Assembly: GCF_003334405.1 (NCBI RefSeq)
Contig: NZ_QOWM01000003.1
DNA: 64,000 nt
Reading direction: 5' to 3' (one strand)
Origin: Escherichia coli
Lineage (GTDB): Bacteria; Pseudomonadota; Gammaproteobacteria; Enterobacterales; Enterobacteriaceae
Within the stretch, counting starts at the first letter, position 1; each line of letters starts with the position of its first letter. This document shows, one piece after another, positions 60,183 through 64,000 of the stretch. The position numbers and the translations under genes are program-made. Below the pieces are notes generated by a model. It made no database searches, was not told the DNA's origin, and saw only the letters and a program-made list of their open reading frames with translations.

Positions 60183-60257
60183 GTGGGATACCAGAAGATT
60201 ATGTTATTTATTATTCAGTAACTTTATCCACAATGATGGGCGTAATTAATTAAATTC

Positions 60258-60470
60258 ATGGTATGTTTTTTAATTTATATCACTCTCCTTTTCATTCAGC
60301 GTGTCTATTTCATTTCCTCTGAAAAGAAACTAACTATTCACATTGTGCAGATGTTTCAGTTGTTATCACAGGCATTCTATAATCTCAAAATGTTTTTAAT
60401 GATGGATATGCTCGGAGTTGGAGATGCAATTAATATTAATACAAATAAAAATATCCGGCAGGTATGCTAA
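60258..60470 (+). CDS. yncH: Small AT-rich ORF of unknown function (70 aa)
   Basis: ORF track; unusually AT-rich, coding status uncertain. Confidence 0.5.
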   Translation: MVCFLIYITLLFIQRVYFISSEKKLTIHIVQMFQLLSQAFYNLKMFLMMDMLGVGDAININTNKNIRQVC

Positions 60471-61289
60471 AAGGATAAATGGCGTTCTCTGTATTTATTC
60501 GCAATTATCTGTAGGACAAATATGGAGAGCTTGATGAGTCAGAGCTAAAACAGCAATTGATTAATAAACATGTTGATTTATTCAAGAAAATGGATGTATT
60601 TTAAATGTTGATTCTTAATATAACCTAATCAATAGATTATCAAGTGAGAGCTACACATTATTGGAGGGGCAGGGGAAAACACCATTTTGGGAACAATGCA
60701 TCAGGTACTCTTACCACTGAAGCAAGATCATCCGGCACCAGGTGGTGGTGCAGTGCTTTGGAAATGGTCCCCTCGGGGGAGTTGTCATTATTTTCTATGC
60801 TATTTGCTTATTATATTCATCAGGTGAATTTAATAAATTCCTAATTTGAAATATCCACTATTAAGCTAGTGTTTAACGACGTTAAGATGGCAATGTGCAG
60901 ATCATGTTATCAGGGTGGGGCGGTAGCGTATATTCCTTATACAAACCATCATTCATTTCAATGATTGTTATTGAATTATTTATTGTTGTGAATAAAAAGA
61001 CATTATGAATATTGGTTTGACTTTGCATATCAGGTTTTTTATTACTCGCTGTAATGTACGAGCCTGTCGTGAATAACGTCGAGAACCCATCCGTTGCGTT
61101 TGTGATTATTTTGTTGACTAAACAGACACCCGTTTCTCTGAAGTAAAATCCCAGACTAAATCATCACATAACCATGACATTTTTCTGATATTCCCCGGTA
61201 ACGCCAGATGTCGACTCGCTTATCTCATCCGCCCGACATGTTGTACATGCAATATGTGCGGATTATTATTCATTTTCACGGAGGTTGCT

Positions 61290-63398
61290 ATGTCAACCGG
61301 ATTACGTTTCACACTGGAAGTGGACGGCCTGCCGCCGGATGCTTTTGCGGTGGTTTCCTTTCATCTGAACCAGTCACTCTCTTCGCTCTTTTCCCTCGAT
61401 CTCTCCCTGGTCAGCCAGCAGTTTCTCTCCCTTGAATTTGCGCAGGTGCTGGACAAAATGGCCTACCTGACGATATGGCAGGGCGATGAAGTACAGCGCC
61501 GGGTGAAAGGCGTGGTGACCTGGTTTGAACTCGGGGAGAACGACAAAAACCAGATGCTGTACAGCATGAAGGTGCACCCGCCGCTGTGGCGTGCCGGTCT
61601 GCGCCAGAACTTCCGTATCTTCCAGAACGAGGACATCAAAAGCATCCTCGGCACGATGTTGCAGGAAAACGGGGTGACCGAATGGAGTCCGCTGTTCAGC
61701 GAGCCGCATCCTTCCCGTGAGTTTTGTGTCCAGTACGGTGAGACTGATTACGATTTCCTGTGCCGGATGGCGGCGGAGGAAGGCATCTTCTTTTATGAGG
61801 AGCATGCTTACAAAAGTACCGACCAGAGCCTGGTGCTGTGCGACACAGTCCGCCATCTGCCCGAATCTTTTGAAATCCCATGGAACCCGAACACCCGTAC
61901 CGAGGTGAGCACCCTCTGCATCAGCCAGTTCCGCTACAGCGCACAAATCCGCCCTTCTTCCGTGGTGACCAAAGACTACACCTTTAAACGCCCCGGCTGG
62001 GCCGGACGTTTTGAACAGGAAGGCCAGCACCAGGACTACCAGCGCACGCAGTATGAAGTGTATGACTACCCCGGACGTTTCAAGGGTGCCCACGGGCAGA
62101 ACTTTGCCCGCTGGCAGATGGACGGCTGGCGAAACAATGCAGAAACCGCGCGGGGAATGAGTCGCTCGCCGGAGATATGGCCGGGACGACGAATTGTGCT
62201 GACGGGGCATCCGCAGGCGAACCTGAACCGGGAATGGCAGGTGGTGGCAAGTGAACTGCACGGCGAACAGCCACAGGCGGTGCCAGGACGGCAGGGAGCG
62301 GGGACGGCGCTGGAGAACCATTTTGCGGTGATCCCGGCAGACAGAACATGGCGACCACAGCCGTTGCTGAAACCGCTGGTCGACGGCCCGCAGAGCGCCG
62401 TCGTGACGGGACCGGCAGGCGAGGAAATCTTCTGTGATGAACATGGCCGCGTGCGGGTGAAATTTAACTGGGACCGCTATAACCCGTCAAACCAGGACAG
62501 TTCATGCTGGATCCGTGTGGCACAGGCGTGGGCAGGCACCGGCTTTGGCAACCTGGCGATACCGCGAGTGGGTCAGGAGGTGATTGTGGACTTCCTCAAC
62601 GGCGACCCGGACCAGCCGATTATTATGGGGCGTACCTACCACCATGAAAACCGCACACCCGGCAGCCTGCCGGGGACGAAGACGCAGATGACCATTCGTT
62701 CGAAAACCTATAAGGGCAGCGGGTTTAATGAACTGAAGTTTGACGATGCGACAGGGAAAGAACAGGTCTACATCCACGCGCAGAAGAACATGAACACCGA
62801 GGTGCTGAATAACCGCACCACTGATGTGATAAACAACCATGCTGAAACCATTGGCAACAATCAGATGATTGCGGTTACCAACAATCAGATACAGACGGTG
62901 GGTGTCAACCAGATAGAGACGGTGGGCAGTAACCAGATAATTAAAGTGGGTTCTGTTCAGGTGGAAACGATTGGACTTGTTCGTGCGCTGACCGTGGGCG
63001 TGGCGTACCAGACGACGGTAGGTGGCATTATGAACACTTCGGTGGCTCTGATGCAGTCCTCGCAGATCGGTTTGCATAAATCGTTGAGGGTCGGGCTGGG
63101 TTATGACGTCAAAGTCGGAAATAACGTTACCTTCACCGTTGGTAAAACGAAAAAGGATGATACCGGGCAGACCGCGATTTACTCCGCCGGTGAGCATCTG
63201 GAGCTCTGCTGTGGTAAGGCAAGGCTGGTGCTGACGAAGGACGGACAAATTTTTCTCAACGGCACAAAAATTCATTTGCAGGGTAAGGAGCAGGTTAATG
63301 GTGACTCACTGTTGATTAACTGGAACTGTGCAGCCTCGAAATCCCCACCGAAGACCCCTGATGAAAAGCAGGATACGCCGGATATGAGAGAGTACTGA
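61290..63398 (+). CDS. vgrG: VgrG type VI secretion spike protein (gp27/gp5-like), no obvious C-terminal effector extension
   Basis: ATG 61290 with ggagg RBS; N-terminus MSTGLRFTLEVDGLPPDAFAVV...; C-terminal Val-Gly-rich octapeptide repeats (IQTVGVNQIETVGSNQIIKVG...). Confidence 0.85.
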   Translation: MSTGLRFTLEVDGLPPDAFAVVSFHLNQSLSSLFSLDLSLVSQQFLSLEFAQVLDKMAYLTIWQGDEVQRRVKGVVTWFELGENDKNQMLYSMKVHPPLWRAGLRQNFRIFQNEDIKSILGTMLQENGVTEWSPLFSEPHPSREFCVQYGETDYDFLCRMAAEEGIFFYEEHAYKSTDQSLVLCDTVRHLPESFEIPWNPNTRTEVSTLCISQFRYSAQIRPSSVVTKDYTFKRPGWAGRFEQEGQHQDYQRTQYEVYDYPGRFKGAHGQNFARWQMDGWRNNAETARGMSRSPEIWPGRRIVLTGHPQANLNREWQVVASELHGEQPQAVPGRQGAGTALENHFAVIPADRTWRPQPLLKPLVDGPQSAVVTGPAGEEIFCDEHGRVRVKFNWDRYNPSNQDSSCWIRVAQAWAGTGFGNLAIPRVGQEVIVDFLNGDPDQPIIMGRTYHHENRTPGSLPGTKTQMTIRSKTYKGSGFNELKFDDATGKEQVYIHAQKNMNTEVLNNRTTDVINNHAETIGNNQMIAVTNNQIQTVGVNQIETVGSNQIIKVGSVQVETIGLVRALTVGVAYQTTVGGIMNTSVALMQSSQIGLHKSLRVGLGYDVKVGNNVTFTVGKTKKDDTGQTAIYSAGEHLELCCGKARLVLTKDGQIFLNGTKIHLQGKEQVNGDSLLINWNCAASKSPPKTPDEKQDTPDMREY

Positions 63399-63464
63399 TC
63401 CCGTACCTGTTCGGTATTCAGTAACAAACCAGCATTAAAAATAAACAGAAGAAGGAATTGAATC

Positions 63465-64000
63465 ATGAGCGGAAAACCAGCGGCGCGTCAGGGAGATATG
63501 ACTCAGTATGGCGGTCCCATTGTCCAGGGTTCGGCAGGTGTAAGAATTGGCGCGCCCACCGGCGTGGCGTGCTCGGTGTGTCCGGGCGGGATGACTTCGG
63601 GCAACCCGGTAAATCCGCTGCTGGGGGCGAAGGTGCTGCCCGGCGAGACGGACCTTGCGCTGCCCGGCCCGCTGCCGTTCATTCTCTCCCGCACCTACAG
63701 CAGCTACCGGACCAGGACACCCGCGCCGGTGGGAGTGTTTGGCCCCGGCTGGAAAGCGCCTTCTGATATCCGCTTACAGCTACGCGATGATGCACTGGTA
63801 CTCAACGACAACGGCGGGCGGAGCATTCACTTTGAGCCGCTGCTGCCGGGGGAGGCGGTGTACAGCCGCAGCGAGTCAATGTGGCTGGTGCGCGGTGGTA
63901 AGGCAGCGCAGCCGGACGGCCACACGCTGGCGCGGCTGTGGGGGGCGCTGCCGCCGGATATCCGGTTAAGCCCGCATCTTTACCTGGCGACCAACAGCGC
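63465..64000 (+). CDS. rhsE: Rhs-family polymorphic toxin, N-terminal PAAR-containing part (3' end lies beyond window)
   Basis: ATG 63465 with gaagga RBS; MSGKPAARQGDMTQYGG... contains a literal PAAR motif; open to window end; GC-rich; symbol by position downstream of yncH; not in ORF track because it has no stop in the window. Confidence 0.8.
   Translation, partial: MSGKPAARQGDMTQYGGPIVQGSAGVRIGAPTGVACSVCPGGMTSGNPVNPLLGAKVLPGETDLALPGPLPFILSRTYSSYRTRTPAPVGVFGPGWKAPSDIRLQLRDDALVLNDNGGRSIHFEPLLPGEAVYSRSESMWLVRGGKAAQPDGHTLARLWGALPPDIRLSPHLYLATNS

Follow-up and report, generated by a model that had tools for sequence, protein, structure and literature searches.

Wang, Zhao, and Hill reportedly described a vgr gene linked to RhsE in 1998. 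The yncG-pptA site of the Escherichia coli chromosome is rhs "position 6" in the survey of Jackson et al. 2009 (Table 3, PMC2935791), whose authors inferred that it ranks with the oldest rhs loci in E. coli. [quoted passage not shown] In the Rhs effector Tse5, the N-plug comprises residues 48 to 124 and cleavage takes place between K47 and P48 (PMC10684867).

We analyzed a 64,000-nt stretch of E. coli DNA (the window), the end of which, positions 60200 to 64000, had been described in an earlier note as an orphan vgrG-PAAR-Rhs module of apparent horizontal origin. This region very probably represents the left-hand half of the RhsE element, an orphan T6SS cargo island at the yncG-pptA site that would depend on the aspV-linked T6SS. 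The locus is a long-catalogued and very common element and no peculiarity of one genome (PMC2935791, PMC7216683).

Identity and left edge of the locus

From paaX to rhs, the window (1 to 64000) was colinear at 99.9% with the annotated genome of E. coli M217, and positions 60200 to 64000 were 100% identical in that strain. Colinearity of 99.9% was also obtained with E2 and K-12, the flanks being 99.8 to 99.9% identical to K-12. A homology search recovered at least 80% of the 60200 to 64000 region in 2,717 of 5,426 complete E. coli genomes. With about half of complete genomes carrying the element, the module had been described correctly but is ordinary. Location at the yncG-pptA site, with ydcD and an H-repeat (ISAs1) downstream, identifies it as the RhsE element of rhs position 6, and a vgrG-effector pair remote from the tssA-M core genes corresponds to an auxiliary or orphan vgrG island.

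Read through colinearity with M217, the upstream 60 kb contained only housekeeping, TA module, or IS genes, in agreement with the earlier statement that T6SS structural genes are missing there. Downstream of rhs, colinear genomes carry ydcD, yncO, ISAs1 remnants, and pptA, and no T6SS core gene was found in the 20 kb downstream. The earlier note had conceded that adjacent core genes downstream, or stops in vgrG or rhs, would overturn its interpretation; this objection falls, since colinear genomes have no such genes there, and neither vgrG nor the rhs part is interrupted by a stop.

TABLE 1 Features at the right end of the window
Feature	Position	Strand	Basis or remark
yncG, glutathione S-transferase family	59565..60182	+	Annotated in colinear M217, E2, and K-12
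yncH, 70-aa DUF5445/YncH-family ORF, 31% GC	60258..60470	+	Annotation in colinear genomes
AT-rich noncoding vgrG leader, 37% GC	60471..61289		Read from sequence
37-bp element	60895..60931	+	94.6% identity to LF82 and S1-CHI-01-A leader copies
Left end of K-12 deletion	61223		K-12 aligns to window 51331-61222 and resumes in M217 rhs; TTA microhomology at junction
vgrG (tssI), intact, 702 aa, T6SS spike protein	61290..63398	+	Pfam, TIGR03361, no internal stop
vgrG-rhs spacer, 66 nt	63399..63464	+	AGGA ribosome-binding site 8 nt before rhs ATG
rhs 5' 536 nt (RHS element core protein, RhsE)	63465..64000	+	Runs past window end
PAAR-like N-terminal peptide, Rhs residues 1-47	63465..63605	+	One PAAR repeat
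DUF6531, N-terminal plug of Rhs cage, residues 46-123	63600..63833	+	Pfam E = 1.4e-18

The backbone ends with yncG, whose stop codon marks the left edge of the variable island. In LF82 and S1-CHI-01-A, strains with other cargo, homology to the window stops at position 60180. Judged by this break, yncH and the AT-rich leader are best assigned to the variable island and not to the chromosomal backbone at its edge. The AT-rich stretch had been taken for a boundary; its AT-richness held, but the boundary did not, because the stretch belongs to the island. A horizontal origin gained support from base composition and from the homology break relative to strains with other cargo.

Base composition and the vgrG leader

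GC content was 0.494 for the whole window, 0.354 for positions 60183 to 61289, 0.556 for vgrG, and 0.660 for the rhs part. The earlier description of AT-rich DNA after yncG, consisting of yncH and about 800 bp of noncoding sequence, was accurate. A GC profile, as the earlier note had advised, displayed an AT-rich minimum followed by a maximum at the rhs end. For segments of 1107 nt, the minimum was 0.346 at 60101 (1st percentile, 0.394), and for segments of 536 nt, the maximum at the rhs end was 0.651 (99th percentile, 0.594). Thus, both values fall outside the distribution of the window itself, and the roughly 1.1 kb after yncG is its most AT-rich stretch (35% GC).

The yncH product had no NCBIfam match. 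The leader, which may be silenced, was identical in M217, E2, TUM3755, and Z1323CEC0007. An Rfam search (E ≤ 1) over positions 59500 to 64000 returned no match. A scan of positions 60100 to 63600 yielded 6 promoter-like and 3 terminator-like sites, compared with 4.8 and 3.6 expected in shuffled sequence; counts this close to expectation make the scan uninformative. The 37-bp element in the leader is common to the leaders of unrelated PAAR-vgrG modules located at the yncG site in other strains, and a predicted promoter-like site, TTATCA-16-TATATT (60907 to 60934), overlaps it. A stretch of 101 bp spanning this element occurred in a median of two places per genome. In M217, neither the rhsD locus nor the aspV cluster contained the second copy.

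VgrG and Rhs

As the earlier note had it, a full-length, GC-rich vgrG is followed after 66 bp by an even more GC-rich rhs gene that leaves the window (702 codons, 66 nt, and 66% GC, respectively). RefSeq starts vgrG at an ATG preceded by GGAGG; another in-frame ATG, at 61254, would give an ORF of 714 aa. One unbroken polypeptide carries a gp27-like hub, a gp5 OB-fold, and a gp5 C-terminal beta-helix, the hallmarks of VgrG/TssI, with Pfam matches to Phage_GPD (residues 29 to 327, E = 1e-74), Phage_base_V (384 to 450, E = 8e-15), and Gp5_trimer_C (467 to 576, E = 4e-26). The TIGR03361 model was covered in full at 624 bits (cutoff, 186). The protein was 100% identical to WP_000103220.1 of M217. 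No terminator-like site was found in the spacer (63399 to 63464). Its 3' part is also conserved in the aspV vgrG-rhs pair, where the spacer is 75 nt long. We infer that vgrG and rhs are cotranscribed.

From the ATG at 63465, the rhs reading frame is open for 178 codons to the window end. These 178 residues were 100% identical to the start of the 1,407-aa Rhs of M217 and matched positions 1 to 178 of the NCBIfam RHS_core model NF041261 at 387 bits, a fragment of this length being unable to reach the 2000-bit cutoff. Both the Rhs N-terminal region (NF041261) and the N-plug (DUF6531) were thus recognized. The plug region aligned to Tse5 residues 48 to 164, and the alignment with the Tse5 shell chain 8cp6_B began at Rhs residue 48, at PVNP (E = 3e-18).

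Of the proposed PAAR-Rhs assignment, the Rhs part stood and the PAAR part did not. A complete PAAR domain (PF05488/DUF4150) has about 90 residues and three repeats, whereas 45 residues precede DUF6531 here. The single Rhs repeat aligned to a stand-alone PAAR protein in BLASTP. The Pfam PAAR_motif match covered residues 3 to 20 and 18 of 70 model columns at an E value of 0.16. A canonical PAAR domain was rejected on the grounds of this E value, the partial coverage, and the single repeat. By analogy, residues 1 to 47 would best be labeled "PAAR-like," the term used for Tse5-NT (PMC10684867).

The toxin tip and immunity gene had been predicted to lie beyond the window. This was borne out in colinear M217, in which the full Rhs comprises DUF6531, a YD-repeat region with 10 copies of RHS_repeat, the RHS core motif (PF03527) that ends in PxxxxDPxGL, and, as its tip, DUF6973; ydcD comes next. 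The best match of the RhsE tip among PDB sequences was not significant (E = 0.16), and a literature search returned no paper mentioning DUF6973. In M217, ydcD, the immunity gene, is annotated as frameshifted. This would be unusual in a toxin locus that is expressed, although an assembly error may be the cause.

The aspV-linked T6SS as candidate apparatus

M217, the only T6SS-positive genome among those examined, has a cluster at tRNA-aspV with tssA, -B, -C, -E, -F, -G, -H, -J, -K, -L, and -M in addition to hcp, vgrG, and rhs, none of them flagged as a pseudogene. It lies 1.33 Mb from the module and is the nearest core cluster. The window VgrG was 89.8% identical to the VgrG of this cluster, with about 96% identity over the gp27/gp5 core, about 75% over the C-terminal 200 residues, and most differences past residue 500. 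The orphan Rhs and the aspV Rhs of M217 were 73% identical over the core. The 90% identity between the two VgrG proteins makes the aspV T6SS the likely cognate apparatus of the orphan pair, as far as can be judged from sequence, and VgrG-Rhs would presumably be loaded on it.

We propose that the VgrG trimer, as a paralogue of the aspV T6SS spike, would dock through its gp27/gp5 core on Hcp and the baseplate and substitute for, or mix with, the resident spike. Rhs may join the spike tip via its 47-residue PAAR-like N terminus; this peptide falls short of a full PAAR domain, so the suggested attachment follows the example of Tse5. The C-terminal toxin would be carried within the YD-repeat cage of Rhs and fired into neighboring bacteria, while YdcD would shield sibling cells. 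If the spike is loaded on the aspV machine, the module would work only where this T6SS is present. At least 80% of the cluster was recovered in 2,031 genomes, compared with 2,717 genomes with the module, so at least 686 carriers, a lower bound derived from the two totals, are without an intact copy of the cluster.

Decay of the module in related genomes

A comparison with K-12, another check that had been suggested, revealed the same locus, in which a clean 4,429-bp deletion has taken out vgrG together with 2,187 nt from the start of rhs, leaving the rhsE pseudogene. K-12 has no T6SS at aspV. In E2 and TUM3755, the T6SS cluster is deleted and a tssM fragment at aspV is fused to a 5'-truncated rhs. 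Together with Z1323CEC0007, these are the three closest relatives of the window, and all three share an additional C at rhs nt 2545, a frameshift located some 2 kb outside the window. TUM3755 has a further private deletion of 5 nt and Z1323CEC0007 one of 117 nt. Between rhs nt 567 and 2486, 31 substitutions are clustered. The background divergence amounts to about 8 SNPs in 37 kb. When typed by SNPs against M217 and E2, the window fell inside neither lineage; it is without two SNP alleles of the E2 lineage (43622 and 49965). The window's private 13-bp deletion at 53496 was found in none of the 5,426 genomes, and no genome matched 25 kb of the window at 100% identity.

The earlier note had left a choice between an apparatus elsewhere and a remnant, and near-identical genomes exhibit both. 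With a complete T6SS in M217 and the cluster missing from E2 and TUM3755, some lineages would hold a live module and others a stranded one. These genomes illustrate a stepwise decay, from M217 (T6SS and module) via E2 and TUM3755 (T6SS deleted, rhs frameshifted, and vgrG intact) to K-12 (T6SS gone and vgrG deleted).

Alternative explanations

In its source genome, the module could be fully functional, with the aspV T6SS intact, rhs unbroken, and the pair serving as a second, alternative warhead as in M217. We consider this a real possibility of somewhat less than even probability. It draws on M217, in which the identical 60200 to 64000 region occurs alongside a complete T6SS and the Rhs is intact at 1,407 aa, on vgrG and rhs 5' sequences that are free of lesions inside the window, and on the missing E2-lineage alleles. 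However, the best 25-kb matches of the window are the E2 group, in which the cluster was deleted in the two members tested and rhs was frameshifted in the three tested, and of the 2,717 carriers of the module, no more than 2,031 could have the cluster intact. A stranded remnant, with the aspV T6SS deleted, rhs a pseudogene beyond the window, and vgrG undecayed owing to recency, has about an even chance. K-12 displays the end state of such a process, TUM3755 and Z1323CEC0007 have private rhs deletions in addition to the shared frameshift, and with a background divergence this low, neutral drift would be expected to spare a 2.1-kb vgrG. This explanation has to accommodate the lack of any lesion in the window and a SNP pattern near the base of the group, outside the E2 lineage. 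On balance, we lean slightly toward a stranded and decaying copy, as the nearest relatives have a frameshifted rhs (three genomes) and have lost the T6SS cluster (both genomes checked at aspV).

A role of VgrG-Rhs independent of T6SS, either as a reservoir for toxin/immunity recombination or through retention solely for the ydcD immunity gene, would explain why the pair persists in T6SS-less strains, including the 686 or more carriers without an intact aspV-type cluster. It would also fit ydcD, which E2, TUM3755, Z1323CEC0007, and K-12 retain intact despite breaks in rhs or vgrG, and the clustered rhs substitutions, which suggest gene conversion between rhs copies. Yet retention of vgrG is explained by recency, and rhs frameshifts and deletions in T6SS-less genomes, like the loss of vgrG in K-12, look like relaxed selection and not a new function. 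To our knowledge, no T6SS-independent function of VgrG has been described, and we regard such a role as quite improbable. The yncG-yddH junction is occupied by VgrG-Rhs in K-12-like, B1, and O157 strains and by PAAR-VgrG-DUF2169 or PAAR-VgrG-M35 peptidase in LF82-like strains. It is conceivable, though unlikely, that the junction is a dedicated exchange site for cargo of different T6SS families, with the 37-bp element and ISAs1 ends as a common regulatory or recombination signal or, in a variant, with an intact vgrG in T6SS-less lineages selected for a T6SS-independent role. Recent, strain-specific acquisition on a mobile element, with the AT-rich stretch as integration scar, would account for the strong departures in GC content from the backbone (leader, 35%; vgrG, 56%; rhs, 66%; window, 49%) and for the ISAs1 copies at the right side of the island. 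This was rejected as highly improbable because the genome distribution contradicts it: half of all complete genomes have the module at the same site, among them O157, 55989, B, and K-12-like strains. Moreover, position 6 is inferred to be old (PMC2935791), the left edge has no integrase, tRNA, or direct repeats, and the AT-rich leader is itself island DNA.

Taken together, the earlier observation was confirmed and its interpretation is supported. The analysis adds little beyond re-identification of a catalogued Rhs element, useful as a clean annotation, and a warning that local sequence alone cannot call "orphan" modules functional or dead.

Comparison with known systems

Compared with the RhsE element of K-12 and EHEC, the chromosomal site, flanking genes, gene order (yncH, vgrG, rhs, ydcD, and ISAs1/H-repeat), and GC-rich core, the last as in the original description of Rhs elements, are alike. 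There is no substantive difference; the window copy retains the 4,429 bp that K-12 deleted. The hcp-vgrG-rhs-immunity-ISAs1 unit of the aspV-linked cluster, which is also present in EHEC O157:H7, has a similar spacer and likewise ends in a small immunity ORF and an ISAs1 element. In contrast to that unit, the window module has no adjacent hcp or tss genes, and the toxin tip, the immunity gene, the C-terminal 200 residues of VgrG, and the N-terminal linker of Rhs differ. We infer that the VgrG and linker differences are consistent with pair-specific recognition.

The PAAR-VgrG-DUF2169 and PAAR-VgrG-M35 peptidase modules of LF82 and S1-CHI-01-A share the insertion point after the yncG stop codon and, like the window module, are T6SS cargo islands with ISAs1 remnants and the 37-bp leader element. 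They differ in having a separate stand-alone PAAR gene and non-Rhs effectors, in the lack of yncH at the yncG site, and in a vgrG with only about 70% DNA identity to the window vgrG over the core. In Pseudomonas aeruginosa VgrG1c-Tse5 (PA2685-PA2684, 8cp6), as here, the Rhs effector directly follows its own vgrG, begins with a 47-residue PAAR-like peptide followed by PVNP and the N-plug, and has no transmembrane or Eag-chaperone region. Tse5 belongs to another species and T6SS family, and the PAAR-like peptide of the E. coli Rhs, which stops at the counterpart of the Tse5 cleavage position, has N47 where Tse5 has K47. Whereas Tse5-CT is pore forming, the RhsE tip is a DUF6973 domain.

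Gene layout and composition

The layout at the end of the window was determined from an ORF listing, direct reading, and translation of the sequence. It bore out the earlier note, which had described an AT-rich stretch leading to vgrG, a 66-nt spacer, and a GC-rich rhs gene that runs off the window end. The mechanical list gives a 714-amino-acid ORF because a second in-frame ATG lies upstream of the vgrG start, at position 61254. That note had allowed for overlooked stop codons in the two genes; translation revealed none in vgrG or in the part of rhs inside the window. GC content, quantified as proposed there, was 0.494 over the whole window, 0.354 at positions 60183 to 61289, 0.556 in vgrG, and 0.660 in the rhs part. 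The AT-rich block is the GC minimum among all 1.1-kb windows of the stretch, and the rhs end is the GC maximum among all 536-nt windows.

Positions of module genes in the window and of related loci in comparison strains (L numbers denote fetched stretches)
Feature	Sequence	Position	Remark
yncG	window	59565-60182	
yncH	window	60258-60470	
Noncoding leader	window	60471-61289	819 nt
vgrG	window	61290-63398	ATG preceded by GGAGG; same start as RefSeq
vgrG-rhs spacer	window		exactly 66 nt
rhs	window	63465 (start)	178 open codons up to window end
rhs, yncH locus	E2, L006	36478-40702	
rhs, yncH locus	TUM3755, L013	4977-9196	
rhs, yncH locus	Z1323CEC0007, L014	33478-37585	
LF82 cargo	LF82, L007	11406-20265	
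S1-CHI-01-A cargo	S1-CHI-01-A, L008	5406-9578	

Chromosomal setting

The window belongs to the E. coli chromosome; between paaX and rhs, its colinearity with strains M217, E2, and K-12 is 99.9%. No genome identical to it was present in a collection of 5,426 complete E. coli genomes. Its first 60 kb consists throughout of housekeeping, toxin-antitoxin, or IS genes and contains no hcp or tss gene, confirming that T6SS core genes are lacking upstream. In the colinear genomes, Rhs totals 1,407 amino acids, with YD repeats, an RHS core motif, and a DUF6973 tip, and its gene is followed by ydcD, yncO, two ISAs1/H-repeat copies, and pptA. Extension through these genes therefore answers in the negative whether T6SS core genes adjoin the module downstream. 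The ydcD gene (YdcD family) is presumed to encode immunity.

Compared with K-12, M217, and E2, the window lacks 13 bp (AAAGGTGAGTGGT) at position 53496 in the curA-mcbR intergenic region, approximately 100 nt upstream of mcbR; this deletion is private to the window (0 of the 5,426 genomes). Positions 1688 to 2909 hold internal repeats of a large autotransporter gene in the ydbD-paaY interval, which we guess to be ydbA. Relative to M217, one 294-nt repeat unit is apparently missing, and the IS3 copy adjoining the M217 gene is absent. An IS200/IS605 remnant between ydcL and ydcO (about 36988 to 38196), also found in M217 and E2, harbors an intact insQ gene (TnpB-family RNA-guided endonuclease). 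This remnant and the hicAB, ortT, and hokB toxin modules inside the window are ordinary E. coli features.

A common element at a variable site

The element is already known. At least 80% of the region from 60200 to 64000 was found in 2,717 of the 5,426 complete genomes, in many cases with 100% identity. The yncG-pptA interval corresponds to rhs "position 6," judged to be among the species' oldest rhs loci (Jackson et al. 2009, PMC2935791). In EHEC EDL933, vgrG2 precedes rhsE in a "vgrG island" (PMC7216683), and such islands have been reviewed (PMC6730261). The earlier interpretation of a horizontally acquired cassette holds, but for an ancient and common locus with no special acquisition. Comparison with K-12 recovered the same locus minus 4,429 bp, cleanly deleted and with TTA microhomology at the junction. 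From its left end at window position 61223, this deletion takes out 67 nt of leader, the entire vgrG gene, and the 5' 2,187 nt of rhs; the remainder is annotated as the rhsE pseudogene.

Different T6SS cargo modules occupy the yncG|yddH junction in different strains, making it a hotspot. At the same site, strain LF82 carries PAAR-VgrG-DUF2169-PAAR-like-DUF4279 and, past IS remnants, a second PAAR-VgrG pair extending off the fetched stretch, while strain S1-CHI-01-A carries PAAR-VgrG-M35 peptidase. Other strains hold sulfatase/GGDEF genes or an ISAs1 element alone at this junction. Homology of LF82 and S1-CHI-01-A to the window ends at 60180, in the yncG stop codon, and yncH and the AT-rich leader are therefore island DNA. 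The AT-rich stretch reported earlier is thus present, but as part of the island and not as a backbone boundary. The sole sequence common to the leaders is a 37-bp element at 60895 to 60931, overlapped by a promoter-like site, with 94.6% identity to the leaders of the unrelated PAAR-vgrG modules in the two strains. Per genome, the 101 bp around it have a median of two occurrences; in M217, neither the rhsD locus nor the aspV cluster proved to hold the second one. That modules of different T6SS families swap at this hotspot with the 37-bp element in common is only glimpsed.

A secretion apparatus elsewhere, and its loss

Strain M217, 100% identical to the window over 60200 to 64000, has a complete T6SS cluster between aspV and yafV, 1.33 Mb from the module. 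It comprises tssB, C, E, F, G, tagH, tssJ, K, L, H, vasI, tssA, and tssM, together with a VasL-domain gene, two hcp genes, vgrG, rhs, an immunity ORF, and ISAs1, with no pseudogene flags. Between the orphan VgrG and that of this aspV cluster, identity is 89.8% (about 96% over residues 1 to 500 and about 75% thereafter); the Rhs proteins share 73% identity over the core and differ in their N-terminal linkers. Judged from sequence, this fits an orphan VgrG that would act as a paralogous spike docking on the aspV machine, and we infer that it recognizes its own Rhs. In M217, ydcD (L001, 27473 to 27954) is frameshifted near codon 51 despite an intact Rhs and a complete T6SS, either through an assembly error in an A-run or as a sign of a silent locus.

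A search for the aspV cluster found at least 80% of it in 2,031 genomes, among them O157:H7 (97.8% identity). Since 2,717 genomes carry the module, at least 686 have it without an intact copy of the cluster. Strains matching the window best over 25 kb included E2, TUM3755, and several of the Z1323CEC series. Of the aspV cluster, E2 and TUM3755 retain only ykfM, one ORF, hcp, the VasL-domain gene, and a C-terminal piece of tssM adjoining a 5'-truncated rhs. The deletion, of about 20 kb, is the same in both (L010, 33709 to 39113; L012, 7813 to 13217), and this type seems common, because the tssM-rhs junction pattern recurred in 3 of 30 evenly spaced rows of the T6SS search. The earlier alternative of an apparatus elsewhere or a remnant thus has both halves represented among near relatives, with a complete T6SS in M217 and a deleted cluster in E2 and TUM3755.

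At the yncH locus, the three strains closest to the window (E2, TUM3755, and Z1323CEC0007) share an extra C at rhs nucleotide 2545, leading to a stop at codon 865, in three independent assemblies from three countries. Further private rhs deletions comprise 5 nt in TUM3755 and 117 nt in Z1323CEC0007. About 30 substitutions relative to M217 cluster at nucleotides 567 to 2486 of rhs in these three strains, suggesting gene conversion from a different rhs copy; the first of them lies 31 nt beyond the window end. All three strains retain an identical vgrG. In K-12, the T6SS is gone altogether, as is vgrG; the series from M217 through E2 to K-12 reads as progressive decay following machine loss.

No lesion that discriminates an M217-like from an E2-like state falls within the window. 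M217 and E2 differ at eight SNPs in the shared 23.8 kb; the window agrees with E2 at six of these and with M217 at the other two, and has two private SNPs besides. The six E2-type alleles may reflect changes private to M217, and the window would therefore branch near the base of the group. We lean slightly toward a stranded module in this genome, and put its being served by an intact T6SS at a little short of an even chance.

Identity of the VgrG and Rhs proteins

VgrG contains the Phage_GPD, Phage_base_V, and Gp5_trimer_C domains and scored 624 bits against TIGR03361 (cutoff, 186). The rhs fragment matches positions 1 to 178 of the NCBIfam RHS element core model, with DUF6531 at residues 46 to 123. 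The "PAAR" label given earlier needs qualification: the N-terminus is PAAR-like, but a full PAAR domain was rejected, as Pfam PAAR_motif gave an E value of 0.16 over 18 of 70 columns, a stand-alone PAAR protein aligned with a single PAAR-type repeat, and DUF6531 is preceded by no more than 45 residues. Among solved structures, the best relative is Pseudomonas aeruginosa Tse5, whose shell chain starts with PVNP, aligned with Rhs residue 48. Residues 1 to 47 of Tse5 form a cleaved 5-kDa "PAAR-like" peptide required for VgrG-dependent secretion (PMC10684867). By alignment, the architecture of a PAAR-like peptide and a shell is common to Tse5 and the E. coli Rhs, the cleavage itself having been seen in Tse5.
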